A DNA stretch of 64,000 bases, taken from the IMG/VR virus record IMGVR_UViG_2675903278_000002. One strand, given 5' to 3'. The notes under the pieces are model-generated. The model saw only the letters and a program-made list of their open reading frames with translations, ran no database searches and was not told the origin of the DNA. Positions 7,750 through 39,693 of the stretch are shown here, in pieces (position 1 is the stretch's first letter; the number at the start of each line of letters is the position of its first letter). Both the position numbers and the translations under genes were made by a program. The DNA comes from a virus. Taxonomy: Duplodnaviria; Heunggongvirae; Uroviricota; Caudoviricetes.

Positions 7750-8307
7750 ATGACAACGATTGTTGCAGGCATCGATATCGAGTCTACGGGACTGGATTTC
7801 CTTGCTGGTCATAAAATTATTGAAATCGCAATTACCCGCTATGAACTGGAGACACAGAGACATATTGATAGTCTGGAGATGCGTTTTAACCCTCGCAGAA
7901 ACATAGATCCGAAAGCTCAAGCCGTTCATGGCATTTCATTGGAACAGCTCGCAGCTGAACCTTTGTTGTCAAATCATGCCAGCGAAATTGGCGCTTATAT
8001 GGGGGCATGTAGTGTGTGGGTTGCTCATAACGGCGAAGCATTTGATATACCATTTATTCGACACGAGTTTTCAGGGTATGGAGTAAGACTGCCAGAAGTT
8101 CCTGTTATAGATACTATGTTATCGGGATTGTGGGCCACAGAAGACGGTAAACGTCCCCGCCTTGAAGAGTTGGCCTTCTCTCTTGGCTTTATATACGATC
8201 ATGCCAAAGCACATAGTGCCTTATATGACACAAACTTAATGATGCAATGCTTCTTTAAGGCACGTAATAAGTACGGATTTTTTAAATTACCCTCTGAAAT
8301 TGTGTAA
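7750..8307 (+). CDS. DnaQ-like 3'-5' exonuclease (DEDDh family)
   Basis: 185 aa; Exo I GIDIESTGLD, Exo II VAHNGEAFDIPF, Exo III HSALYDT; RBS AGGAG; hairpin terminator follows. Confidence 0.85.
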   Translation: MTTIVAGIDIESTGLDFLAGHKIIEIAITRYELETQRHIDSLEMRFNPRRNIDPKAQAVHGISLEQLAAEPLLSNHASEIGAYMGACSVWVAHNGEAFDIPFIRHEFSGYGVRLPEVPVIDTMLSGLWATEDGKRPRLEELAFSLGFIYDHAKAHSALYDTNLMMQCFFKARNKYGFFKLPSEIV

Positions 8308-25999: not shown

Positions 26000-26109
26000 C
26001 GGTTGCAACTTATTGATAATGGCGGTCACAATTTGATTCTTTTCTATAAGAACCCGTTGATCGCCACTACTCCCCTCCCATACCAGCAATCACATCATTA
26101 AATATCAAT

Positions 26110-26960
26110 AGGTTATGGTTGTTTATACAAATAAGAAAACAACTAAATAACAGATCAACGAAACGTCAACGCTTTCACCCGATTTGGTCTAAAAAATTGA
26201 CGTTTTCACACATCACTTCTTATACCCGTAACTCTACGCAGCAGACATCGCCACAGCGTCCAATTTTCACCACAGACGACCCAACACACTACCAACAAAA
26301 ACACACGCTCAAAATCGCTCCCGTTGCGTTACACAACCATATAAACAACTTATTTTCAGGCATAACAAAACAACTAAATAACACACATGCCATTTCCAAA
26401 AACAACCAACCTCTTTATGGCAGGCTACCGAAAAGACCCACCTCTTCTCCCCAGGCTACCGGACAACCAACCTAACTTTCACAGGCAATCCGAAAACATT
26501 CATACGCGCGATACCCACGACACGCCATTACCCAAACAGCGAAGAAACACCAGAATCACTGAACCCCCAACGAAGCCTGTAACCGCAAGGCTTCTCTCAA
26601 TCCCAAAAGACACGAAACAGAACAATCACGGGAAACGCCATTACCCAACACACGAATAACTACAAAAGCCCTTCACGCACTCCAGACAAACAACTCAAAC
26701 ACAATAACGAAAGGAATCGCCCACCTGCCATTACTCCATACACGGAGAAGAACAATCACCAAAACGACGAGAACACCCCATAGAAGAACCACCGCAAAAC
26801 GAACGAAACCACATACACCGACAGAGAGAACAACACACCCAATTCACCAACAGAATTAGTCGCCGTATAGAACGTTCTGGAAGGAGTGAGTGTTAACGTC
26901 CATAGAGAGGTTGAGACAGATAAAACACGAATAAAACACAACATGTATAGCGAAGAAGCC
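26110..26960 (+). ncRNA. candidate non-coding transcript, A+C-rich and G-poor on the + strand
   Basis: ~0.85 kb strongly depleted in G and T; starts after a class-A-like half motif (AAGAAAACAACTAAATAACA, repeated ~240 nt in); ends at hairpin+T terminator ~26983-27007; ORFs here are low-complexity. Confidence 0.35.
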
Positions 26961-26982
26961 AGGTATGTATAAGTGGGGAGAG

Positions 26983-27007
26983 AAGGAGGGGTGTCGCCTC
27001 CTTTTTC
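26983..27007 (+). terminator. rho-independent terminator
   Basis: GGAGG-GGTGTCG-CCTCC followed by TTTTT. Confidence 0.65.
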
Positions 27008-27059: not shown

Positions 27060-27210
27060 TCGGTCCATACAGGGAAAAGGCTGCATCCCGCTACAGAAAC
27101 GGCTGGGTTGCCTTCGGGGAACGGCTGGAGGTTTTCAGGGAAACGGTCGAGTTGCCTGTGTGGATTTCGGGAAAAGGCTCGATGCCGGTTCAGGAACGGT
27201 GGCGTACCGG
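27060..27210. repeat. array of short iterated repeats (GGGAAAmGGCT-like), ~6 copies at ~20-30 nt spacing
   Basis: CAGGGAAAAGGCTG, CAGAAACGGCTGG, GGGGAACGGCTGG, CAGGGAAACGGTCG, CGGGAAAAGGCTCG, CAGGAACGGTGGCG in series; related array at ~31085-31260. Confidence 0.6.
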
Positions 27211-27535
27211 TATAGCGTGAGGGAGAGTTGCGGCTGTCCACCTGTAATGTGCGGGAAGAAGAGAGGCGCTCACGTGCAGGCGAACTTACTTACCGCTGGA
27301 TTCCCTCTGAATGCCCAGCTACAGCGTAATTGTGCCAGACAGTCAGCGGGTCACAATCGATTTCAGTAGGTTTTCGGGGAGAAGAAAATTCTGCCCACCA
27401 GCCCTGCGGCGCGCGTAGAGCAGAATATCGTAAATACTGGTTCCGTGTCGTTCCCGGATACTCACTACCCAGCCTGGCTTTCCCGACATAAAATCCTTTT
27501 CCGCCTTTGTCTTATTGCGATAATAACACCAACAA

Positions 27536-27552
27536 GTAAACAACATGTTTAG
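27536..27552 (+). promoter_or_regulatory. class-A palindromic motif
   Basis: GTAAACAACATGTTTAG preceded by CGATAATAACACCAACAAG box, upstream of ATG 27583. Confidence 0.6.
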
Positions 27553-27582
27553 ACGTTATATAAACGAAGTGAGGATGAAGAG

Positions 27583-27801
27583 ATGATTAAGATGCCTGTG
27601 ACGGTTGAGGTGTGGGGCGTGGATTCCCTGGCTGAGTGTCTGGATGCAGTGGGGCCGGAGTTGTACCGCAAGTTGTGGTCGTTCGTCCCGGCAGAAGGGG
27701 AATCGCCCAAAGGGAAGGATATCTGGCACCTGCTGAGTGAAGATGAAAAGCGGGAGCTGGTGGACGCGGTACACAGCGAGTTCCCGGGCGACGAAGATTA
27801 A
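27583..27801 (+). CDS. hypothetical small acidic protein
   Basis: 72 aa; RBS GAGGATGAAGAG; terminator follows. Confidence 0.6.
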   Translation: MIKMPVTVEVWGVDSLAECLDAVGPELYRKLWSFVPAEGESPKGKDIWHLLSEDEKRELVDAVHSEFPGDED

Positions 27802-27806
27802 GAGTG

Positions 27807-27830
27807 AGGCCACCAGCACGGTGGCTTTTG
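27807..27830 (+). terminator. rho-independent terminator (GGCCACC...GGTGGC family)
   Basis: GCCACC-AGCAC-GGTGGC hairpin followed by TTTTG. Confidence 0.7.
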
Positions 27831-27912
27831 TCGCTATTAACCTCCGGGCAGCGCAGCACCGTAACGATATACTTTGTGGCCGTTTTCTTACTGGTATTGT
27901 TTACGCAATTCA

Positions 27913-27930
27913 GAAAACAACATGTTTAAG
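27913..27930 (+). promoter_or_regulatory. class-A palindromic motif
   Basis: GAAAACAACATGTTTAAG; ~35 nt upstream sequence nearly identical to that before the motif at ~28396. Confidence 0.6.
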
Positions 27931-27939
27931 GATTGCGTT

Positions 27940-28269
27940 ATGTTTGCAAATATCGACATCAACCAAATCAAGAAAATGACTCAAAAAGAGTTTGACCAGT
28001 TTTATGAGTTAGAAGGTTGGTCTTCCACTCTGATCAATTCGCGGTGGGTGCTTGAGCTGATGACTCGTGATGACGCACCTGCTTTGATGATTTGCGACAT
28101 GGGTGAAGATGCTGACTTTATGGATATGAGCGAATTTTGTGTGGACACATACAACCGCAGCCAGAAGTACTACTTCACATGCGATAGCGAAAATGACGTG
28201 ATTTCTAAGGTCTATCTTCACCTCGTCCAGCATTGGGACGTTCAGGAGTTTCTTGAAGTATTCGAGTAA
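27940..28269 (+). CDS. hypothetical small acidic protein
   Basis: ~109 aa from ATG 27940 (AAGGA upstream), in frame with track ORF 27874; terminator follows. Confidence 0.6.
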   Translation: MFANIDINQIKKMTQKEFDQFYELEGWSSTLINSRWVLELMTRDDAPALMICDMGEDADFMDMSEFCVDTYNRSQKYYFTCDSENDVISKVYLHLVQHWDVQEFLEVFE

Positions 28270-28277
28270 CCCCAACC

Positions 28278-28303
28278 AAAGCCAGCATTGCTGGCTTAAT
28301 TTC
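28278..28303 (+). terminator. rho-independent terminator
   Basis: AAGCCAGC-ATT-GCTGGCTT hairpin then AATTTC. Confidence 0.65.
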
Positions 28304-28395
28304 TCTATAGCCGCAGGGAAGAACCTGCATATCGCTCATGCACCTGATCAATATGCTTTGTAGCCGTTTTCTTACTGGTATTATTTACGCCATTG

Positions 28396-28412
28396 AGAAA
28401 ACAAGTTGTTTA
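28396..28412 (+). promoter_or_regulatory. class-A palindromic motif
   Basis: GAAAACAAGTTGTTTAC upstream of RBS GGAG and ATG 28423. Confidence 0.6.
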
Positions 28413-28422
28413 CGGAGTTGTG

Positions 28423-28734
28423 ATGAAAAAATCATTGGTTCTTGGTCTGGACAAAGACCAGAAGAGAAAAGAGAAGCCTGCGCTGGTTGCTCAATTAACT
28501 TTGCTGGACATCGTTGCCAATGGAACCTCTATTCGTCTGTTCCGTGAAACAGCGGTGTCTTTCGATAAAAACACCTTTACTCGTTATGTAATGAATGTTC
28601 GTCGCCAGCGTGGAAAAGGCTGGGTGGCATTTCAAAGAATGTGGCCGGAACATCAGCTCGAACTGGCTTTGATGGAAGTTAACCGCGTGGCCCAGCAAGA
28701 GATTCAGAGAGCATCAGTGATGGCAATAGCCTGA
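28423..28734 (+). CDS. hypothetical small basic protein
   Basis: ~103 aa from ATG 28423, in frame with track ORF 28393; terminator follows. Confidence 0.6.
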   Translation: MKKSLVLGLDKDQKRKEKPALVAQLTLLDIVANGTSIRLFRETAVSFDKNTFTRYVMNVRRQRGKGWVAFQRMWPEHQLELALMEVNRVAQQEIQRASVMAIA

Positions 28735-28767
28735 TAATGTGCAAGTGGTAATTAGTCGACAGTACGA

Positions 28768-28797
28768 CAGCCCCGCCATCCTTACGGGGCTTTTTTG
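28768..28797 (+). terminator. rho-independent terminator
   Basis: GCCCCG-CCATCCTTA-CGGGGC hairpin followed by TTTTTT. Confidence 0.8.
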
Positions 28798-28860
28798 TAT
28801 TGTAAGTACATACTTATGATCATAGAATATAAAAATAACCAAAACACTACGGAGAGTGAA

Positions 28861-29256
28861 ATGACCGTTAAACGCGAAAAACTGACAGTTGATGTTTACT
28901 ATGCCTCTGAAACCGCCGAAGGTAAGAATGTGGCAAAAATCACCGTTGTTACGTACAACACCGAAACTGGTGCCGAAGTCCAGGCCAGTACGATCGTGCG
29001 TAAAGGTGATGCCTCCGACGGCGAGTACGCGACTCAATACCAGTCCATTCTCGATGCAACTGACCCGCTGCTGCTGAAAATCGAGAACTACTTCCGCCAG
29101 GTTGATGAAGAGGTGTTTGAAACCATGATGAATATGGTTAACACCGTATTCGCCTCCAACCTGAATACCAACACTACCTGGATTGGTCAGTACGGCCTGC
29201 GCATTACCTCTGGCATTCCTGCCGACACCTTAATCCCTGAAAGCGTATTCGCTTAA
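28861..29256 (+). CDS. hypothetical protein
   Basis: ~131 aa from ATG 28861 (GGAGAG upstream), in frame with track ORF 28795; terminator follows. Confidence 0.6.
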   Translation: MTVKREKLTVDVYYASETAEGKNVAKITVVTYNTETGAEVQASTIVRKGDASDGEYATQYQSILDATDPLLLKIENYFRQVDEEVFETMMNMVNTVFASNLNTNTTWIGQYGLRITSGIPADTLIPESVFA

Positions 29257-29263
29257 TCCTCTT

Positions 29264-29293
29264 TAAATGGCGCGTAAACCGCGCCATTTTCTT
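29264..29293 (+). terminator. rho-independent terminator
   Basis: AATGGCGCG-TAAAC-CGCGCCATT hairpin followed by TTCTT. Confidence 0.75.
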
Positions 29294-29300
29294 ATGCCCG

Positions 29301-29318
29301 ATAACAATTTGTTTTCTG
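29301..29318 (+). promoter_or_regulatory. class-A palindromic motif
   Basis: ATAACAATTTGTTTTCTG, same variant as at ~24678. Confidence 0.6.
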
Positions 29319-29373
29319 CCTTATCTGATTTGTGAAAATGATTTCACTGAAGCAACTTAATAAGGAAACCATC

Positions 29374-29748
29374 ATGGGACTTGATATCTATATCGAGACA
29401 CAGCCTAAAAACGATCTGAATAACGAGGCATCCAGAAAGCAGGTTGCTTACTTCCGTAAGTTCAATGCGCTCGTTGGGTGGATGGAGCGCAACGTAGGTG
29501 AAGTCGAAAATTGTGAGCTTTTAGAATTAACGATGAATGACATTTGTTTTCTGAAGGCTCATTTGATGCACATAAACGAAAGTAATTGCGAAGAGTACTT
29601 GCCTACCCGGGAAGGTTTTTTCTTCGGCAGTCAGGAGTACGATGAAGGTTACTGGCATGATGTGGGGCAGTTGAAAGAGCTTGTGGAAGATCTGATTAAG
29701 AACCACGACTTTCACAATAACAGACTGACCTTCTGCGCCTGGTGGTAA
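29374..29748 (+). CDS. hypothetical protein
   Basis: ~124 aa from ATG 29374 (AAGGAAACC upstream), in frame with track ORF 29332. Confidence 0.6.
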   Translation: MGLDIYIETQPKNDLNNEASRKQVAYFRKFNALVGWMERNVGEVENCELLELTMNDICFLKAHLMHINESNCEEYLPTREGFFFGSQEYDEGYWHDVGQLKELVEDLIKNHDFHNNRLTFCAWW

Positions 29749-29750
29749 AT

Positions 29751-29894
29751 ATGGGCGATTTCAAGAAACGCCTGAAGGAAAGAGCCGAGATGGTCAGAAA
29801 GCAAAACGCCTCTTCTGTCATCAGATACGCAAGGCAGTTTAGTCGCAACAACAAATCAGTTGAGGAAAAGATCCTTAGCGTAATCGGTCGATAA
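29751..29894 (+). CDS. hypothetical small basic protein (47 aa)
   Basis: ATG 2 nt after previous stop; product MGDFKKRLKERAEMVRKQ...; below track cutoff. Confidence 0.35.
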   Translation: MGDFKKRLKERAEMVRKQNASSVIRYARQFSRNNKSVEEKILSVIGR

Positions 29895-29900
29895 TTATTA

Positions 29901-29925
29901 AGGCCACCAGCATTGGTGGTCTTAA
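29901..29925 (+). terminator. terminator-like hairpin (GGCCACCA...TGGTGG family)
   Basis: AAGGCCACCAGCATTGGTGGTCTT; near-identical hairpin at ~30373. Confidence 0.55.
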
Positions 29926-30049
29926 ATGACTTTTAATAACCGAAGGTTAGTTTGAAACCTGGCTATCAACTTCCAGAACCTTTCTTGTGTATTCAGCCTG
30001 TATTAACTTCTTTTATGCCTTATCTACACTGCGATAATTACACCAACAA

Positions 30050-30067
30050 GAAAACAACATGTTTACG
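30050..30067 (+). promoter_or_regulatory. class-A palindromic motif
   Basis: AGAAAACAACATGTTTAC preceded by GCGATAATTACACCAACAAG box. Confidence 0.6.
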
Positions 30068-30077
30068 CAGTGAGGAT

Positions 30078-30365
30078 ATGCTCATGACTGATTTCACCAT
30101 TACCCCTAAAGCACAAAATGTATTTCTTGAATCATGGCTGGACTTGCCGGAAACAGAACAGCAAGAAATGGATCATGTGGATTATGACGAGCAGGTAAGC
30201 ACGCGATTCTTCCACTTTGAGGGATGCGTTTACGACATTGCTGACTTCATGCGAGATGACCGCTTCCCTGAATGGCACGCCAGTTATCCACTAAACGCCT
30301 TTGCCATGCTGATGATCCGTGTGGATGATTCAGGGGATACCATCGACATCGGTCTGCTCCACTAA
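30078..30365 (+). CDS. hypothetical small acidic protein
   Basis: ~95 aa from ATG 30078 (GTGAGGAT upstream), in frame with track ORF 29952. Confidence 0.55.
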   Translation: MLMTDFTITPKAQNVFLESWLDLPETEQQEMDHVDYDEQVSTRFFHFEGCVYDIADFMRDDRFPEWHASYPLNAFAMLMIRVDDSGDTIDIGLLH

Positions 30366-30370
30366 AGATT

Positions 30371-30396
30371 AAGGCCACCAATGCTGGTGGCCTTAA
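30371..30396 (+). terminator. terminator-like hairpin
   Basis: AAGGCCACCA-ATGC-TGGTGGCCTT, perfect 8-bp stem, then AAATG. Confidence 0.55.
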
Positions 30397-30534
30397 ATGA
30401 CCATCCTGTTTCCCGCAGGCTAAAAACACCAACCTCTTACCTCCAGGCAACCGACAAACCCACCTGTTCCCGTCCGGCTACCGCAACTTTCCACTTTGAC
30501 GCCTTATTCGTACAACGATAATTAACACCAACAA

Positions 30535-30555
30535 GAAAACAATTTGTTATTTACG
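30535..30555 (+). promoter_or_regulatory. class-A palindromic motif
   Basis: AGAAAACAATTTGTTATTTAC preceded by ACGATAATTAACACCAACAAG box. Confidence 0.6.
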
Positions 30556-30569
30556 ATAAGGAATTAATC

Positions 30570-31052
30570 ATGAATTTTATCGCTACTGTAAACGCACCCG
30601 CACATGGCAATATCGCTGTAACGTTCTCTGACATTGAAAAACGAGTACTTGGTGCATGGCGCGACAATGAGACGGTAGAACTGTCAGCACAAGAAAAATG
30701 CATTATTGCACGCGACATCATTGGCAATCGTCGTTACTCGCGGGTATTTGAGAAAGCGTATGTGGTAAATTCTGGGTTCGGAACGTTCGTCTTTCCGGTG
30801 CGCTCCGGGCGATTCTGCCAGTCCAAGCTGATTGAGTTCGCTACGCAGATTTCTGTCTGGATTAAAACTCAATCGTCGTTCAAATTTTCCGACGATGAAG
30901 CAGTATCGCAGGGGATGCGGATCGCCAACAATGCGATTAAATGCAAAAACATTACGTATACCGCTGGCGTTGATACATGGAAACTGTTTTGCGCTAACTT
31001 TATGCTGAATGTATACGCAAGCAACCGCATCCACATCCTTGATGGCGTGTAA
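30570..31052 (+). CDS. hypothetical protein
   Basis: 160 aa; RBS AAGGAATTAATC; hairpin terminator follows. Confidence 0.65.
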   Translation: MNFIATVNAPAHGNIAVTFSDIEKRVLGAWRDNETVELSAQEKCIIARDIIGNRRYSRVFEKAYVVNSGFGTFVFPVRSGRFCQSKLIEFATQISVWIKTQSSFKFSDDEAVSQGMRIANNAIKCKNITYTAGVDTWKLFCANFMLNVYASNRIHILDGV

Positions 31053-31055
31053 CTG

Positions 31056-31083
31056 AGAAGAGGGCCAGAAACGGCCCTTTCTC
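31056..31083 (+). terminator. rho-independent terminator
   Basis: AGGGCC-AGAAAC-GGCCCT hairpin followed by TTCTC. Confidence 0.7.
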
Positions 31084-31084
31084 T

Positions 31085-31260
31085 ATAGCCACCAGCTGCC
31101 GCAGGGAAATTTTCAGAAACGGCGAGGAACGTATTCATAAGCCGACGGGAAACGGCCAGGATTTTTTCGGGAAACGGCTGCATTCGCCTTTATGTAGAAA
31201 AAAACATCGGGAAGCTGGTGGAATCCAACCAGCGGTTGTCGGACAGGCGAGCGGGGAAAA
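31085..31260. repeat. second array of GGGAAACGG-like iterated repeats
   Basis: GCAGGGAAATT, CAGAAACGGCG, GACGGGAAACGGCC, TCGGGAAACGGCTG, ATCGGGAAGCTGG, GCGGGGAAAATT; begins with CTCTATAGCC box also seen after the terminator at ~28303. Confidence 0.6.
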
Positions 31261-31289
31261 TTATGATGACTTTCGTCGCCTGAGACATC

Positions 31290-31360
31290 CAGATTTCTTT
31301 CGTAGCATAATCACATACGTGATTAAGTGGTGTGATTATGTGAAAAATCACGCGCACATA
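31290..31360. promoter_or_regulatory. cluster of TCACA/TGTGA half-site palindromes
   Basis: AATCACATACGTGATT, GTGTGATTATGTGA, AATCACGCGCACATAAT within ~70 nt of AT-rich non-coding DNA. Confidence 0.35.
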
Positions 31361-31635
31361 ATACGCGAGCGGATACGGAACAAAACAAAATGCCGATCCG
31401 CGCCGACAAATAAACGCGGATCACATAGCAAGAATAAAAGCCAATGATTAGCCATACGTTATAGCGCAATATAACGCATTTTAAGCGCGTTAATGTGCTA
31501 AGTAATGGGTATGTACTGGTAAGGATATAAAAGCGCGTCTATGGCGTTATTTTGGCGCTTATTTTTATGTTGTTGGAGTGAGTTAAAGACAATAAAAAAC
31601 GCGCCATCATTGGCGCGCTATGGTGGGAGTATTGG

Positions 31636-31662
31636 AAACGAAAAAAGCGCCCATAGTGGGCG
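31636..31662 (-). terminator. rho-independent terminator for minus-strand cassette
   Basis: AAGCGCCCATAGTGGGCGCT hairpin with A-run on + strand; same 20-nt hairpin in inverse orientation at ~32139. Confidence 0.65.
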
Positions 31663-31669
31663 CTCGATT

Positions 31670-31900
31670 TTATTTGTGTAAACTGATTTTAAATCCCATT
31701 TCTACAAACGCTTTTAACATTAAAAATATATCAGCGTCGTTGATTCCAATATCCGAACGCTCAATATCATTTAATAAATCAATTTTACGCGTTGTTTCAT
31801 CGATAAACTCGACTGAGCGCCCAGCGTAACCAGCGATCCCAGCGATGCGATTAACAAAATATTCATTGCGCACGTTAACGCCAGCGATAAGAACAAACAT
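31670..31900 (-). CDS. hypothetical small protein
   Basis: 76 aa; minus-strand AAGGAG RBS 7 nt before ATG; AT-richer than flanking DNA by eye. Confidence 0.55.
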   Translation of the reverse strand: MFVLIAGVNVRNEYFVNRIAGIAGYAGRSVEFIDETTRKIDLLNDIERSDIGINDADIFLMLKAFVEMGFKISLHK

Positions 31901-31921
31901 GATAAAGCTCCTTAAAAAAAA

Positions 31922-32125
31922 TTAAATAGAATTTTGAAGTTTTCCGATTAATGCGCTTAAACGTAAGTATTCACGTTTGCGCTTGCAATCTCGCTTGCTG
32001 TTGAGCAAATCAGAAAACGTAAAATTTAATTGGTCGCGTTGCGCGATCAAATCATCGATTAATTCCAGTTTATAAGCGCGATACTTTGCGCGATATTCCG
32101 CGCGGATCTTGTCATAGCTGACCAT
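31922..32125 (-). CDS. hypothetical small basic protein
   Basis: ~67 aa from internal Met (MVSYDKIRAEY...) of track ORF 31922..32170, with AAGGAG RBS. Confidence 0.5.
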   Translation of the reverse strand: MVSYDKIRAEYRAKYRAYKLELIDDLIAQRDQLNFTFSDLLNSKRDCKRKREYLRLSALIGKLQNSI

Positions 32126-32138
32126 TTTTAAAGCTCCT

Positions 32139-32162
32139 TTAAAGCGCCCACTATGGGCGCTT
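32139..32162 (-). terminator. intercistronic hairpin (attenuator-like)
   Basis: AAGCGCCCACTATGGGCGCTT between the 216-aa gene stop and the next RBS. Confidence 0.5.
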
Positions 32163-32173
32163 GATTCCATTAA

Positions 32174-32824
32174 TTACGCTTTGAAAGCATCAGCTAAATA
32201 ATTGTAGAAATCATTTTTAATGAAGCGATATTGCTGAGTACCAGCTTTCGCGCTCCCAGCTCCTTTGACTTTTTCAACAAGTCCAAGACGTTCGCAAAGA
32301 TTGATCAACTGGTTGGCTTGAGTATAGCCAGCGTCCAATTTAATTTCGCACGCTTTTTTCGCTTCATTCATTAAATCGAAAACAGCGCCATTGGTGAACG
32401 TGTCGATCTCGTCGTTAATCATATCGATTAATGCGAATACACGAGATCCGGACATATCAGCGACGGAATAAACACACTTTCCAGCTTTAATGGATTTAAC
32501 CAGATAAACCAGTTTTTCCAGAGAATAACTATTAGTCATTGCATCACGGAAAAATACTTCTGGCGCTTGTTTGCTTGCTTTGATCGCATAGTAGAAAACA
32601 GAGCACAATTTTTCGTCTTCTACAGCGTTTACAACGTTGTTGATGAAGTAAGCAAGTTTAGTGGTTGCAGCTTGCATATTTGCTTTGTCTGCTTTGGTGT
32701 GCGTGCCATTTTTATAATGTTCGTTATATGTTTGAGTTGCCAGATCTGCTTTTTCGCGCAGTTCATCGGATACAATGGAAGCAGCTTCAATGATGGATTT
32801 TTTAGAAATGATAATGTTAGCCAT
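32174..32824 (-). CDS. hypothetical protein (216 aa)
   Basis: Long minus-strand ORF, AT-richer by eye, AT-rich promoter-like region upstream (32825-33070); no recognisable domain. Confidence 0.7.
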   Translation of the reverse strand: MANIIISKKSIIEAASIVSDELREKADLATQTYNEHYKNGTHTKADKANMQAATTKLAYFINNVVNAVEDEKLCSVFYYAIKASKQAPEVFFRDAMTNSYSLEKLVYLVKSIKAGKCVYSVADMSGSRVFALIDMINDEIDTFTNGAVFDLMNEAKKACEIKLDAGYTQANQLINLCERLGLVEKVKGAGSAKAGTQQYRFIKNDFYNYLADAFKA

Positions 32825-33069
32825 GATAATTTTTCCTTATGTAAATTTAAAATTTATTGTCGTTAGCGTCTTCGCTTTCGACGAGTTCAATTATCGATAT
32901 GCGAAAAAAGATTGCAAGTGTTTTTTTTAAATTTTTTGCAGGGATGAAAGTCCTAGAAATAAAAGCGAGATCGTCGAAGGTGTTCCCTAAATAAATAATT
33001 GATTGCGGCTTTAGACCTTATATATATTTAGGTTATTTGATTTGTAGATATAAAGAAGTGATGTGAAAA

Positions 33070-33419: not shown

Positions 33420-33944
33420 TCAAAAAGGCAAAATTCGTTCAACCCAATCGAACAAAACAACTATTTTTCTACCGTTCTCGACACGTAGTGTAACCTGACA
33501 AGCATCTGCGCCTGCTGACACCCCCTCAATTTCACGGCCATCCGCCATGTACACCCTTATAGATTTGTTTGCTTTGTAGGCTTGGTTGCAAATTGCAAAA
33601 AAATCGCGGCGTGATGGCCGATTATCGACATAATCAGGGTGAACTGTTAGTCGACCTTTGAAATCGTGAGCGATACTGTCAACCACACCTGATTCAATTG
33701 TACTAATGCGTTCAAGTGGGAGCCTTATACGATTTTCTTTGTCAAAAGGGGCTGGGCAAAGGTCAACTTTGTTACGAGATGGCATGAGGCCATAAACGTA
33801 CATGCAAAACGCCTGGCCATCTTCGAGAGTGACCCTTACAGGAATTTGTTCTCTGCGCCAGAACATCAGTAGTTTTTCAACGTTAGTGTAATCTCGCGGC
33901 CAGAGTTCAGCTTGGATACCGTAGGTAATATCTTTGGTTGTCAT
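33420..33944 (-). CDS. hypothetical protein
   Basis: ~174 aa from internal Met (MTTKDITYG...) of track ORF 33420..34022; ATG 1 nt after the upstream lipoprotein gene stop. Confidence 0.55.
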   Translation of the reverse strand: MTTKDITYGIQAELWPRDYTNVEKLLMFWRREQIPVRVTLEDGQAFCMYVYGLMPSRNKVDLCPAPFDKENRIRLPLERISTIESGVVDSIAHDFKGRLTVHPDYVDNRPSRRDFFAICNQAYKANKSIRVYMADGREIEGVSAGADACQVTLRVENGRKIVVLFDWVERILPF

Positions 33945-33948
33945 ATCA

Positions 33949-34371
33949 TCACAGAGTTGTTGGCAGAATGTCGATGTCACCAGAATTGCTGGTAAACACC
34001 CTGAACGCTTTTGTGTCTCCATTCTTCAGAGTCGTTTCTCGCTCTTGACGAGCGGGGTTTAGAGCACATAAACCTGCACCTTCAAGAGATGCACCCACAA
34101 TTAATTCTCCGGCATTTAAATGGAAAGTCGCTTTTTCGCCTGTAGCCAGTTTTGCGACAGTTTCGCCGTTGATGAAAATGGAAGCATCACATCCAGCTCC
34201 TACAAAACCTGTGTCTCTCATTACCACCAACGTAGCTGGCGCTGCGCTTTGATACTTGAACACTTTGGCCTGCGGTGCTGGTTTGGCGTCATGGATTGAT
34301 ATTGGGTGTGATTGGCACGCGGCAAGCATCAACACTGGTAACGTTAGTAGAGGGAGAAGCGAGTATTTCAT
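33949..34371 (-). CDS. putative lipoprotein (candidate superinfection-exclusion protein)
   Basis: ~140 aa from internal Met (MKYSLLPLLTLPVLMLAACQ...); lipobox LAAC; function inferred by analogy. Confidence 0.6.
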   Translation of the reverse strand: MKYSLLPLLTLPVLMLAACQSHPISIHDAKPAPQAKVFKYQSAAPATLVVMRDTGFVGAGCDASIFINGETVAKLATGEKATFHLNAGELIVGASLEGAGLCALNPARQERETTLKNGDTKAFRVFTSNSGDIDILPTTL

Positions 34372-36322: not shown

Positions 36323-36347
36323 ATAATAAGTAAGTGATTACTTAGTG
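36323..36347. repeat. class-B palindrome in divergent intergenic region
   Basis: TAATAAGTAAGTGATTACTTAGTGG between helicase (-) and ParB-like (+) starts; overlaps a TATAAT hexamer. Confidence 0.55.
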
Positions 36348-37043
36348 GATTGTAGCAATAAAATGGATGTAAAAATCACGATTTTGCAGGTTGATGTTGC
36401 CAACCTTCGCCCGAATACCTGGAACACCAATTCGGTTGGTGCGCAGAATTTTGAAAAACTGAAAGGTTCTATCGAAAAATTGGGCTTTTTTAAGCCAATT
36501 TTGGCTCGTGAACTTGAAGATGGATTTTTTGAAATCCTCGGCGGTGAACATCGCTGGCGTGCTGCTATTGAGCAAGGAATTTCAACGGTTCCGGTGCTTT
36601 CTGTGGGCAAAATTAGCGATGTCGTAGCTAAACAGATGTCACTGGTGGACAACGAGCGATACGGTGAAGACGACCAAATCGCATTGCAACGCTTCATTGA
36701 AGAAATTCAGTCAGAACTTGACTATCAACTGTCTGAAATCGCCCCGTATGACGACGAAATCTCGATGGTTTTAGCAAAAGAGGCGGCAATCGACCTTGAA
36801 GCACTGGAGGCGTTGTCTCGTGGTAGTGATGAGCCTGTCGATACCGACAAACGAGAGAAAACCGAACGTGTGGGTGCGGAACATCAGACCATGCGCTTCA
36901 AAGTAACTTTCGATGCGTCAGATCGTGTTGCAGAAACCATAAAAAACATCATCAAAGAGCAGGCTATTAACACCGGTAATGAAATGGAGAACGCTGGTGA
37001 GGCTCTGGTGTGGCTGGTCGACTACTACAAGGAGCGTATGTAA
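36345..37043 (+). CDS. ParB-like nuclease domain protein
   Basis: 232 aa; ParB/Srx-like N-terminal motif FEILGGEHRWRAA; track start is GTG 36345, ATG at 36363 also possible. Confidence 0.8.
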   Translation: MDCSNKMDVKITILQVDVANLRPNTWNTNSVGAQNFEKLKGSIEKLGFFKPILARELEDGFFEILGGEHRWRAAIEQGISTVPVLSVGKISDVVAKQMSLVDNERYGEDDQIALQRFIEEIQSELDYQLSEIAPYDDEISMVLAKEAAIDLEALEALSRGSDEPVDTDKREKTERVGAEHQTMRFKVTFDASDRVAETIKNIIKEQAINTGNEMENAGEALVWLVDYYKERM

Positions 37044-37711
37044 TGACCAAAAAGTTTGAAATCGTATATCGCGACCCGGCAGATCTTATTCCCTATGAGA
37101 TGAATGCCAAAAAGCATGATGAACAGCAGATCAGAGATTTGGCCGCAGCCATTAAAAAGCGCGGATTTGACCAGCCAATTACGGTCGATAAGAACGACGT
37201 AATTATTACTGGCCACGGCCGCCGTGAGGCTGCAATTTTTGCTGGACTTGAGCGCGTACCGGTTATTGTTCGTGATGATCTGAGTGATGACGAGGTTCGT
37301 GCGAAGCGCCTTGAAGATAACCGACTTGCCAGCATTGATTACGATGCAATTAAGCTACAGAAAGAGCTTGAGTCGCTTGTTCTGGACGATATTGAGGTTT
37401 TCGGCTTTGAAGAGCGTGAGTTGAATGTTCTCGTTGGCAGTATGACAGAAGAAATGGACACCGACTCGCTAGTTATCGATCTTGGCGAAGAAACTAAACG
37501 ACAGAAGGATGAACACACCGAGATCAGTCGTGAAGTTGCAGCGGAAGAAGTACGTGTTGTCGACGTATTGGGCTTTAAAACGCTCCCTGCTGGCTCTGCC
37601 ATTGTTGTTGGTGATTTGCTTGCCCATATGGAAGAAATGACGGGAGAAAGCGGGGTAGACGCATTTGTGGCATATGCGGAGAAGATCTCTTCCGGGGAGA
37701 TGGCTGCATGA
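37043..37711 (+). CDS. ParB-like nuclease domain protein (second paralogue)
   Basis: ~222 aa from ATG overlapping previous stop; ParB-like ITGHGRREAA; acidic C-terminal half. Confidence 0.8.
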   Translation: MTKKFEIVYRDPADLIPYEMNAKKHDEQQIRDLAAAIKKRGFDQPITVDKNDVIITGHGRREAAIFAGLERVPVIVRDDLSDDEVRAKRLEDNRLASIDYDAIKLQKELESLVLDDIEVFGFEERELNVLVGSMTEEMDTDSLVIDLGEETKRQKDEHTEISREVAAEEVRVVDVLGFKTLPAGSAIVVGDLLAHMEEMTGESGVDAFVAYAEKISSGEMAA

Positions 37712-38373
37712 GCAAATACATCATCAACGTATCGTTTCAGACACGCGTAAATAAAACCACGCGCACGTTGGAAATCGCTGAGTCGTTCGGGCTTGGCCTG
37801 GACGAAAAAGAGTGGACGCTTTACGACAATCTGGAGCTGGAAGTGAAGCAGGGCGATGTGGTGTACATCACCGGCCAATCCGGTTCCGGCAAATCCGTTG
37901 TGCTGCGCGAGTTGCAACGACAGATGAAGGATGAAGGGCTGTCTGTAGCCTCCATCGATGATTTTACCTTCGATAATGAGGTTAACGTCATCGATCAGTT
38001 GGGCAAAACGACCAGTGATGCGCTTGGGTTGTTATCTATGGCTGGTCTGAACGATGCATATCTGTTTGTTCGCAAGCCTTCTGAAATGTCAGACGGCCAG
38101 AAATATCGTCTCAAGATTGCCAAACTGATTGAGTCAGGCGCTAAAGTATGGGCTGCTGACGAGTTCGGCGCTGTTCTCGACCGTGTAACCGCTCAGGTTG
38201 TGGCGTCTAACCTCCAGCGTGCCGCTCGAAAGGTTGGTGCGACGGTAATGGTGGCGACGACTCACGAAGACCTGAAGAACGCGCTGCGCCCTGATATGCA
38301 GATCACCAAGCACTACAAAGAACGCGTGAAGGTGGAATATCACAATGGTAGTCATGATGAGGTCCATTCATGA
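37708..38373 (+). CDS. ABC-type ATPase
   Basis: 221 aa; Walker A ITGQSGSGKS, signature-like MSDGQKYRLKIA, Walker B VWAADEF; coupled to ParB-like genes. Confidence 0.8.
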   Translation: MSKYIINVSFQTRVNKTTRTLEIAESFGLGLDEKEWTLYDNLELEVKQGDVVYITGQSGSGKSVVLRELQRQMKDEGLSVASIDDFTFDNEVNVIDQLGKTTSDALGLLSMAGLNDAYLFVRKPSEMSDGQKYRLKIAKLIESGAKVWAADEFGAVLDRVTAQVVASNLQRAARKVGATVMVATTHEDLKNALRPDMQITKHYKERVKVEYHNGSHDEVHS

Positions 38374-39260
38374 CGGACATCATCATTAAACGCTACCGCC
38401 CTGAAGAGTTTCCGCGTCATCTGGACTTTCTGGAGCGAATGACTGTTACAAAGGGAACTGTAGAGGACTGGCACGCTCTTAAGTCGCTTCACTACAAAAC
38501 AGACGGCAAACCTTTCGCGCCAACTTACTATCGCTGCGAACTTGATGACCGTCTGGTGGGCGTCGTGGTTATGGCTTACCCGAAACTACTGTTGGCACCT
38601 CGCCACCGCATGTTTCCTAAGTTGAAACCAACCACTAATACCACCGTGGCTAACCAGTACTGGGGTCGGTACGTGAATAACAACTTTGCGGTGATCAGTC
38701 GCTCAGTTGTGGATACTCAGTATCGTGGCGTAGGCGTCTCTTATAGAATGATTAACCTGGTTAGCAGGATGCATGACCGGCCAATCATTGAGATCCAGTC
38801 CTCGATGAGCAAATACAATCCCTTCGCCATGAAAGCAGGGTTTAAGTTCATCCGCCCTGAGCGACCGAAGAGCTATGAAAGTGCACTGCGTGTGTTCCAG
38901 CGCCATTTCCGCTCCGACCCGGGTGATAACGAGGCGATCGTCAAAGAGTTGTTCGCTATGAGCGAGTCTCGTCGTCGCCGTGCGCTGCGCGATTTGGTGG
39001 CGGACTACCATAAGAACAGTTCCCTGGCAAAAGCTGGGCGGAATCGTGGCACGACGATTCAGGACATTGCCGACAGTCTGGTGGACGAGGCCAGCATTGT
39101 GAAGCTGCTCAAGGACATTCACAACCTGAGCTTTACGTCTCCGTTGTATGGTGTGTACCGAAACCCTGACTTTGGCCGTCGACTGCCTGACACGCTGCCA
39201 CTGCTGGCATTCGACAAACAACCTTTGGATAAACCGTTAGAAATTGCTTTACCGGCATAA
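38370..39260 (+). CDS. hypothetical protein, possibly acetyltransferase-like
   Basis: 296 aa; overlaps previous stop; QYRGVGVSYRMINLV loosely resembles a GNAT acyl-CoA site; low confidence on function. Confidence 0.65.
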   Translation: MTDIIIKRYRPEEFPRHLDFLERMTVTKGTVEDWHALKSLHYKTDGKPFAPTYYRCELDDRLVGVVVMAYPKLLLAPRHRMFPKLKPTTNTTVANQYWGRYVNNNFAVISRSVVDTQYRGVGVSYRMINLVSRMHDRPIIEIQSSMSKYNPFAMKAGFKFIRPERPKSYESALRVFQRHFRSDPGDNEAIVKELFAMSESRRRRALRDLVADYHKNSSLAKAGRNRGTTIQDIADSLVDEASIVKLLKDIHNLSFTSPLYGVYRNPDFGRRLPDTLPLLAFDKQPLDKPLEIALPA

Positions 39261-39269
39261 GGATTTGCC

Positions 39270-39536
39270 ATGACGTTAACCGACAAACAAAAGGACATCA
39301 TCAAAACGCTCAATCTCGGTTATGAGCGAGGTCATCTACTTGACCTGGACGAATTGCTTGAAGTTTTGCCGTACAAGACAACCAAGCAAAGTATCCAGTT
39401 CTCAATTCGCGCTCTGATAAAAAAGGGGCTGGTGGAGAAAGGGCATACGCGCCAACGCAGTGACAATCGCTATCACCGCCGGACTCTTGGGTTAACCACT
39501 TTAGGTCGAGCCAAAGCGAAGTTACTGGTGATGTAA
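39270..39536 (+). CDS. small basic protein, possible DNA-binding
   Basis: 88 aa; lysine/arginine-rich with helix-turn-helix-like segment; immediately upstream of packaging genes. Confidence 0.6.
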   Translation: MTLTDKQKDIIKTLNLGYERGHLLDLDELLEVLPYKTTKQSIQFSIRALIKKGLVEKGHTRQRSDNRYHRRTLGLTTLGRAKAKLLVM

Positions 39537-39560
39537 TCGGTCTGGGAGCTTATTTAAAGA

Positions 39561-39616
39561 CCTGCATCTGTATATATAAATAATAAGTAACTTATTAAAT
39601 ATATACGGAAGCAGGC
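39561..39616. repeat. long AT-rich hairpin element, copy 2 of 2
   Basis: CCTGCATCTG ... CGGAAGCAGGC around AT-rich loop; homologous to element at 10075-10131; ~115 nt upstream of terminase small subunit. Confidence 0.7.
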
Positions 39617-39650
39617 TTCGTAAGACATGCCAGACCTAATTAAACACCCC

Positions 39651-39693
39651 AGAAAACAAGTTGGTTAGCAGATGCAGTAAACAAGTTGTTTTA
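39651..39693 (+). promoter_or_regulatory. tandem class-A palindromic motifs plus hairpin, upstream of packaging operon
   Basis: AGAAAACAAGTTGGTTA and GTAAACAAGTTGTTTTA ~10 nt apart, followed by AGAGCGC-ATGGAC-GCGCTCT hairpin. Confidence 0.6.

Follow-up and report, generated by a model that had tools for sequence, protein, structure and literature searches.

In the window, a 64,000-nucleotide stretch of DNA (IMG/VR virus record IMGVR_UViG_2675903278_000002) from a phage-plasmid of the SSU5/pHCM2/pMT1 type, a gene-free gap between two converging gene blocks carries a short array of direct repeats (array 2), which shares its repeat unit with another array 4 kb upstream in the same orientation (array 1). 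The repeats are supported as genuine iterons, being direct repeats in helical phase that show purifying selection and family-wide conservation. We read the two arrays as a cis-acting iteron pair and put forward an origin or origin-enhancer of the phage mode, tentatively, as the likeliest of its possible roles. Within the window, positions 29500-33000 are 96% identical to Escherichia phage Cyrano, and the gap shares 99.5% identity with E. coli plasmid pAVS0223-B. The arrays and the sequences that directly follow array 2 are as follows.

31102..31177, plus strand: iteron array 2, with the copies CAGGGAAAT (31102), CAGAAACGG (31114), AGGAACG (31125), GGGAAACGG (31147), and GGGAAACGG (31169).
31186..31201, plus strand: conserved block GCCTTTATGTAGAAAA, which follows the strong iterons.
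31207..31221, plus strand: degenerate iteron CGGGAAG fused to the plus-strand Chi site GCTGGTGG (31214-31221).
27068..27203, plus strand: iteron array 1, six copies of TTTCrGGrAAmGGCTGg at spacings of 22, 22, 22, 31, and 22 nt, conserved in relatives.

Three copies in array 2 are strong, namely CAGAAACGG at 31114-31122 and GGGAAACGG at 31147-31155 and 31169-31177, with core-to-core spacings of 33 and then 22 nt. Degenerate copies are found at 31102 (CAGGGAAAT), 31125 (AGGAACG), 31209 (GGGAAG), and 31253 (GGGGAAAA). Written as RRAAMGG, the core occurs at 31116, 31149, and 31171, and also at 31068 in the loop of a terminator that precedes the array. Same-strand clusters of cores reach six and four members, compared with a maximum of three in 60 Markov shuffles, and five exact 22-nt core pairs were observed where 0.15 were expected. 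The GGGAAACGG-type repeats, from which the original prediction for this region had started, are genuine. The GCCTTTATGTAGAAAA block contains a DnaA-box-like 9-mer on the minus strand with one mismatch, which is at chance level.

To follow the repeats through the family, 93 related loci were gathered by means of the neighbouring protein. The anchor sequence CCACCAGCTGCCGCAGGGAAA directly follows the gene for this 160-aa protein in 93 of 93 loci, and alignments of divergent lineages showed invariant repeat cores separated by variable spacers. Using the third codon positions of the adjacent gene as a neutral reference (41-47% identical in the relatives compared), we found that the iteron block retains 72-76% identity to the window and the flanking terminators 72-92%, whereas 31201-31590 retains 45-59%, near the neutral level. 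The core distances are strictly limited as well. In 81 distinct sequences of array 2 they are 22 nt (74 times), 33-34 nt (68 times), or 55 nt (three times), and in 58 distinct versions of array 1 they are 22 nt (183 times) or 31 nt (32 times), with rarer distances of 44, 52-53, and 66 nt making up seven cases in total. The spacings are multiples of 10.5-11 nt, which places the copies on one face of the helix. Helical spacing of this kind points to a protein that binds duplex DNA rather than to RNA or coding sequence.

Both arrays are found in relatives from Escherichia, Klebsiella, Kluyvera, Salmonella (pHCM2), and Buttiauxella, and array 2 is also present in the Enterobacter loci that were checked. 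Yersinia pMT1 has array 2 only; its record (L002, 3173-5023) lacks array 1 and carries a copy of IS1541 in the corresponding region. The possibility, raised at the outset, that the repeats might be missing from related genomes and represent decayed coding sequence does not hold, given that they are conserved family-wide and no open reading frame (ORF) is. More distant relatives were traced through the ParB-like protein encoded at 36345-37040. In a 127-kb metagenomic contig whose ParB-like protein is 42% identical, the gene-free gap contains four copies of GGGAAAGGCTGGCGATCCA and two of GGGGAAAGGGAAACGGG; in the lineage represented by contigs L156 and L157, the corresponding gap contains three copies of GGGRAWTGAMCTG, and the related motifs GGGAAAGGCTGG and GGGAATGAACTG occur in relatives at about 40% protein identity. 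The repeat motif is old. In L156, the convergent gap beside the helicase cassette holds a different repeat, TGACCCA, which suggests that protein binding makes use of the position as well as of the motif. These L156 repeats, at 7770-7900 and likewise present in L157, are direct repeats of (T/C)GACCCA in about seven copies approximately 10 nt apart.

Comparison of array 2 with the array near 27060-27210, of which it had been proposed to be a second set, confirmed that the repeats at 27068-27203 share its unit (TTTCrGGrAAmGGCTGg); the sequence outside the repeats is unrelated. With a weight matrix built from nine copies, no high-scoring site fell outside these two clusters, whether in the 64-kb window or in a complete 108.6-kb relative, and all high-scoring sites point one way. 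The arrays flank a variable block of small early-type genes. Array 1 itself follows a plus-strand terminator, in a stretch of about 1.5 kb without a recognised gene, which is unannotated in pAVS0223-B and pHCM2. This stretch includes some 900 bp of marked strand asymmetry (26000-26900), where the plus strand is A+C-rich, with a GC skew of -0.4 to -0.58 and an AT skew of +0.3 to +0.7, and where no ORF matches a PHROG; it ends at the terminator at 26980-27007, just before array 1. A C-rich stretch likewise precedes the array in the distant relative L161.

The gap that holds array 2 spans 31053-31669 (617 bp) and lies between convergent terminators, as had been predicted from the converging gene blocks; the terminators on both sides are conserved. 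On its left, the 160-aa gene on the plus strand (30570-31052, phrog_1641) encodes a protein with no Pfam match and no known fold. On its right, a 76-aa gene on the minus strand (31670-31900) is the last in a minus-strand cassette that starts with a UvsW-type helicase gene. The hairpins that bound the gap or lie within it are as follows.

31062..31084, plus strand: intrinsic terminator of the 160-aa gene, GGGCC-AGAAAC-GGCCC followed by TTTCTCT, with the AGAAACGG core in its loop.
31246..31280, plus strand: inverted repeat GGCGA...TCGCC, which encloses the degenerate iteron GGGGAAAA (31253) and a GAC-TTTC-GTC hairpin.
31543..31567, plus strand: weak terminator-like hairpin with a T tract (GGCG..GGCGCT TATTTTT), conserved in sequence.
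31598-31619 and 31645-31665, minus strand: two tandem intrinsic terminators that close the UvsW-helicase cassette, found in the terminator scan.

The plus-strand terminator at 31062-31084 was skipped by a simple terminator scan on account of its short T tract; it is kept in nine of nine aligned lineages and is also recovered as a hairpin by RNAalifold. In the minus-strand terminators (31598-31665; 72-92% identity) the stems are invariant and the loops variable. The plus-strand gene stops at 31052 and the minus-strand gene ends at 31670, and no ORF in the gap is common to all lineages, so that the interval is gene-free as originally described. A hidden small gene was rejected, as ORFs in several frames are matched in relatives solely by virtue of DNA identity, and so was a 47-aa ORF annotated in pHCM2, which is out of frame in the window. 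A coding origin of the repeats was dismissed on the ground that 22-nt units cannot hold a reading frame. Searching with the gap of about 0.6 kb, blastn returned 784 plasmid records, of which 350 cover at least 80% of it; the matching plasmids include Y. pestis pMT1, S. Typhi pHCM2, and plasmids of Klebsiella, Enterobacter, Cronobacter, and Buttiauxella, and almost no related record has an annotation there.

Two inverted Chi sites enclose array 2, a newly noted feature of these elements.

31089..31096, minus strand: Chi site, read on the plus strand as CCACCAGC, immediately 5' of array 2 and part of the anchor found in 93 of 93 loci.
31214..31221, plus strand: Chi site GCTGGTGG, to the right of array 2.

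Both sites match 5'-GCTGGTGG-3' exactly and are conserved, and they are putative sites of RecBCD activity. The anchor CCACCAGCTGCCGCAGGGAAA begins with CCACCAGC, and the minus-strand Chi at this position is kept in about 66 of 81 distinct relatives; the inverted bracket as a whole is kept in about 64 of the 81. The plus-strand Chi lies at +125, +145, or +170 from the anchor, which are three different alignment columns depending on the lineage. Its relocation between lineages argues for selection to have a Chi site in this place, as opposed to mere inheritance. The 81 distinct relatives showed no compensatory changes of the sort expected if the two sites base-paired. In pMT1 both sites are mutated (to CCACCAGT and GCCGGTGG) and the iterons are kept. 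Chi is overrepresented approximately 10-fold in the element as a whole, the window having 22 sites where base composition predicts about 1.5, and the plasmid 26 where 2.4 are expected. Seven of them fall within the 3.8 kb of 27395-31221, those at 27810, 29904, and 30383 lie within terminator stems of small genes, and many are arranged as minus-then-plus pairs. RecBCD heading toward array 2 from outside meets each Chi before the array, and the order minus-left, plus-right is the polarity found around the bidirectional origin in E. coli.

The remainder of the gap bears out less of the original prediction, which had described an AT-rich segment with a cluster of TGTGA/TCACA half-sites. Two features of this part can be listed.

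31308..31325, no strand assigned: near-perfect 18-bp palindrome TAATCACAT/ACGTGATTA, within an insertion of about 28 nt peculiar to this lineage.
31331..31344, no strand assigned: TGTGATTATGTGAA; nothing else in the palindrome cluster is conserved in most lineages.

TGTGA or TCACA occurs four times in 31311-31421, the only such cluster in the window; however, at least four occurrences within 120 bp were found in 22 of 60 shuffles, and the palindrome is lineage-specific. No TGTGA-N6-TCACA site exists in the gap sequence. With a half-site density at chance level and a lineage-specific palindrome, the segment does not qualify as an operator cluster of the CRP or repressor type. The supposed AT-richness fails as well, since the GC content of this part (0.36-0.45) is no lower than that of the neighbouring genes (0.31-0.43), and it does not seem to be conserved, the homologous stretch of relatives being GC-richer by the look of the alignment. 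The conserved TGTGATTATGTGAA could be an extended -10 element (TGTGATTAT, plus strand) or a CATAAT -10 element (minus strand); no consensus sigma-70 site was found at this position in relatives.

Given these results, only part of the proposal that the interval is an origin or a multi-operator control region is retained. A protein-binding site acting in cis, such as an origin, remains a reasonable reading of direct, phased, and selected iterons in a transcription-insulated gap; the palindrome and AT-rich half of the argument falls away, and there are no DnaA boxes beyond chance and no adjacent Rep gene. If the origin reading is real, the arrays would form an additional origin for the phage mode, distinct from that of the plasmid. 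In pAVS0223-B, where the arrays are at 69.7 and 73.7 kb, repA lies some 40 kb from them at 1-1056, accompanied by P1/RepFIB-style iterons (ATCCACTATAGAGAG), by TTATCCACA boxes, and by a GATC cluster, and the RepA iterons are unrelated in sequence to the array repeats. A plasmid-mode origin at the arrays, or the related notion of copy-control or incompatibility iterons, is hardly credible despite the iteron-like architecture, because the element has this separate and complete set of sites; decayed coding sequence and chance, placed equally low, are excluded by the unit length, the lack of a conserved ORF, purifying selection, and family-wide conservation.

The phage-mode origin is ranked first because the element has a T4-like replisome without a known phage origin, because T4 oriE also contains repeats, and because phage P4 uses bipartite repeat clusters. 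The replication and recombination set of the element includes a gp32-like SSB, a UvsY-like protein, the UvsW helicase, a DnaB-like helicase, a primase, and DnaE, and no phage-mode origin was recognised among its sequences. P4 has two direct-repeat clusters, ori and crr, that are both needed in cis and both bound by one initiator, the alpha primase-helicase, which recognises the iteron TGTTCACC. The likeness lies in two short clusters of direct repeats several kb apart on one replicon, the two arrays being the only such clusters in the 108-kb relative. It differs in that no alpha homologue or other binder was identified in the element, which carries separate DnaB-like helicase and primase genes in place of the joined primase-helicase of P4, and a replication role of the arrays would be assigned by analogy. 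T4 oriE contains evenly spaced direct repeats, and T4 origins sit where transcription changes strand (PMC3016281). The element resembles this arrangement in its evenly spaced direct repeats, its gp32-, UvsW-, and UvsY-type proteins, and the position near a switch of the transcribed strand. In contrast, the T4 repeats are 12 nt long, the switch in the element is convergent, two arrays and a Chi bracket are present, and RepEA or RepEB is not in evidence. The iteron origins of theta plasmids (P1 oriR/RepFIB, pSC101, R6K, and that of the element's own repA) share with the arrays at least three direct repeats of about 17-22 bp in helical phase, a phasing of about 22 bp, three to six copies per cluster, and more than one cluster; they differ in having an adjacent rep gene, a conserved AT-rich region, DnaA boxes, and a GATC cluster.

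Several observations weigh against a phage-mode origin at the arrays. There is no adjacent gene for a Rep initiator, no conserved AT-rich unwinding element, and no DnaA box in the gap other than one-mismatch matches at chance level. No phage-mode initiator for the arrays was identified in the element, and tblastn found in it no homologue of the lambda-O-like initiators of certain other phages, described below. Whole-plasmid cumulative GC and AT skew is monotonic, follows gene orientation, and is uninformative, with a plateau only and no turn of the origin type. The transcription switch at array 2 is convergent whereas T4 origins are divergent, small hairpins are possible in a plus-strand transcript and leave room for an RNA role, no Chi bracket was found around array 1, and the role of the oriE iterons is itself unproven (PMC3016281).

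A lambda-O-like initiator was considered as the binder after a scan of the collection for three GAAACGG-type cores at 22-nt spacing, a pattern that biases toward such matches. The scan recovered the element's own family and unrelated phages with GGAAACGGCA iterons. In the latter (IMG/VR contigs L099, L121, L144, and L146), four to five GGAAACGGCA iterons at 22-nt spacing lie inside a replication-initiator-like gene and are followed by ACAGATC repeats, which looks like a typical in-gene phage origin. The core and spacing are almost the same as in the arrays, but these iterons are inside the initiator ORF with GATC repeats after them, and the initiator, lambda-O-like by eye, has no Pfam match. 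It was rejected as a candidate since it has neither a tblastn homologue in the element nor a Pfam family. The likeness may be coincidental, as the search pattern had required GAAACGG at 22 nt.

In mechanistic terms, the phage-mode origin reading would work as follows. The repeats at 31102-31177, the degenerate copies to about 31260, and the partner array at 27068-27203 would be read on double-stranded DNA by a sequence-specific protein, with the bound copies on one face of the helix. The convergent terminators would keep array 2 free of transcription, and a RecBCD enzyme approaching from outside would meet Chi before reaching it. The array pair could then act as an origin or origin-enhancer for the T4-like replisome, the plasmid-prophage origin being a separate site. 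The most specific version, a bipartite, Chi-guarded origin or enhancer that serves the T4-like replisome through an unrecognised initiator, with the element switching between RepA/oriR and a separate iteron origin of a type so far undescribed in phage-plasmids, is a good deal more speculative, and we regard it as unlikely in this complete form.

Among the other readings, the strongest is that the arrays are loading sites for a regulator or DNA organiser that controls the gene block between them, either as insulator or silencer boundaries or as entry sites for the two ParB-N proteins (36345-37711) acting as sliding clamps, by analogy with long-range silencing of the KorB type; it can be considered possible, albeit improbable. 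The block flanked by the arrays is hypervariable, and each of its small genes has its own repeated promoter/operator cassette. The two ParB_N proteins are encoded 5 kb away, in an operon that is syntenic even in the distant relatives that keep related repeats; however, these genes belong to a packaging operon. GGGAAAC, the iteron core, combines features of the half-sites of parS (GTGAAACA) and of the Noc NBS (GGGAAATA) (PMC7383237), matching six of eight positions of each, but parS and NBS are 16-bp palindromes that adjoin the gene of their own protein, whereas the array copies are direct repeats. A beta-alpha-alpha segment at the C-terminus of the first ParB-like protein is conserved and looks ribbon-helix-helix-like by eye, judged from the sequence pattern. 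On the other hand, alignment to Spo0J revealed no ParB-type helix-turn-helix (HTH) in the ParB-like proteins, the structure model (AF2) was unusable with a pLDDT of 37, and L156, which has TGACCCA in its convergent gap instead, conserves the C-terminal strand just as well. The arrays do not therefore classify as ParB or Noc sites of the parS or NBS kind, with six of eight half-site matches and no ParB HTH encoded locally.

Two observations on these genes may be added. The operon (36345-39260, plus strand) encodes two ParB_N proteins and two ABC-type ATPases upstream of the terminase genes and is syntenic in the relatives at about 40% identity, L155, L156, L159, and L161; the C-terminal segment of the first ParB-like protein reads MRFKV...NAGEALV. 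Between the arrays, a cassette of 55-77 nt with the palindrome AAACAAnnTTGTTT precedes each small plus-strand gene, and also the terS-like gene (27488-27551, 27872-27926, 28356-28410, 29283-29340, 30009-30063, 30494-30548, and 39650-39690). The AAACAAnnTTGTTT cassettes, which resemble the promoter-stem-loop cassettes of T4 hyperplastic regions, are probably a phage-specific promoter/operator module.

An RNA role, in which plus-strand transcripts, arising by read-through or independently, present GGGAAACGG in hairpin loops and titrate or recruit an RNA-binding protein, for example an FljA-like protein (33420-34022) or a GGA-binding one of the CsrA type, seems quite unlikely. Small GCCG/CGGC stems can show GGGAAA in their loops, the upstream terminator has a weak U tract, and the weak plus-strand terminator at 31543-31567 is conserved. 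Pair 3 of the stem 31246-50/31276-80 occurs in C-G, U-G, and U-A states, and other lineages have a hairpin of the GGGG-TTTCAG-CCCC type at this position; the covariation is, however, not significant. RNAalifold on 13 non-redundant sequences, run for both strands, folded only the flanking terminators, so that no consensus fold emerged. The Rfam scan of the gap gave nothing at the gathering score, the sole sub-threshold match, to Hrs1, covering the terminators with 28 bits where the gathering score is 56, and the gap therefore does not fall among the known structured RNAs by either an Rfam match or a conserved fold. No conserved sigma-70 promoter was found. The Y. pestis RNA-seq study, which mapped reads to the same pMT1 record as compared here, lists intergenic small RNAs for pMT1 at 98.1 and 105.8 kb only and none at 36.0-36.6 kb (PMC3770706 supplement). 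The strict helical-turn spacing (22, 31-34, 44, and 55 nt) is a property of a DNA face, and one invariant copy, CAGAAACGG, lacks GGA; a CsrA sponge was rejected on these two grounds. As for the FljA-like candidate, FljA is an mRNA-binding repressor. The protein encoded nearby on the minus strand (33420-34022) matches Pfam Flag1_repress (FljA family, phase-1 flagellin repressors) with an E-value of 2.5e-84, has a weak Hfq-like match in its C-terminal part, and is conserved in pMT1 and pHCM2, whose records label it a "transcriptional regulator".

It is very unlikely that the locus is a RecBCD or recombination module, in which the Chi pair and the Chi-like tails of the iterons (GGCTGGnGG) would stop RecBCD and load RecA, either as a hotspot at the borders of the variable block or for the protection of replication or rolling-circle intermediates. 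The exact, inverted, and conserved Chi sites around array 2, the relocation of the plus-strand one, the excess of Chi in the element, the density in 27395-31221 with some sites inside terminator stems, and the presence of mosaic breakpoints inside the gap are all consistent with such a module. It would, however, leave the invariant GAAAC core and the helical phasing unexplained; array 1 has no Chi bracket, pMT1 retains iterons beside two mutated Chi sites, and the excess of Chi may partly reflect oligonucleotide or codon bias.

More remote still is a role in packaging, with the repeats as a pac or cosB-like site that the small terminase subunit would recognise. Small terminase subunits commonly bind repeated sites, and the R sites of lambda cosB (R1-R3) share the 7-mer GGAAACG/CGTTTCC with the iteron core (NC_001416). 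The lambda R sites nevertheless have mixed orientation and other spacing and adjoin the gene of their own protein, whereas the element has direct repeats whose two arrays precede the terminase genes by 8.5 and 12.6 kb, a TerL of the T4 type, and a TerS-like protein that is not Nu1-like, so that a cosB of the lambda type does not fit. The Chi polarity at array 2 is also wrong for protecting the ends produced by a cut inside the array. A better pac or cos candidate exists, namely an AT-rich palindrome of about 40 bp at 39556-39612 beside the terS-like gene. The palindrome is near-perfect and separates the terS-like gene from an 88-aa wHTH-like gene (39270-39536); a plus-strand Chi is found shortly to the left of it, at 39428, and by coordinate mapping the SSU5 GenBank record appears to start or end near it, the mapping for Cyrano being inconsistent.

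Phage-plasmids of the SSU5 type, to which pMT1 and pHCM2 belong, are common among clinical Klebsiella, E. coli, Enterobacter, and Salmonella. Their plasmid origin is known by homology; their phage-mode replication and essential cis sites are described neither in the literature we found nor in the record annotations examined. The literature yielded nothing on this locus, the motif, or the lytic origins or termini of SSU5, and a preprint on heteroresistance proved to deal with another phage-plasmid family. Few non-coding sequences of the element are as conserved as the 0.1-kb repeat block and its partner, which are unannotated in the records examined. If the arrays serve only as sites for a regulator, they would still mark the borders of a hypervariable gene block. 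If they are a phage-mode origin or another essential cis site, they would provide a handle on the switch from plasmid to phage, a target for curing or typing these elements, and an example of Chi placed to shield a protein-DNA complex.

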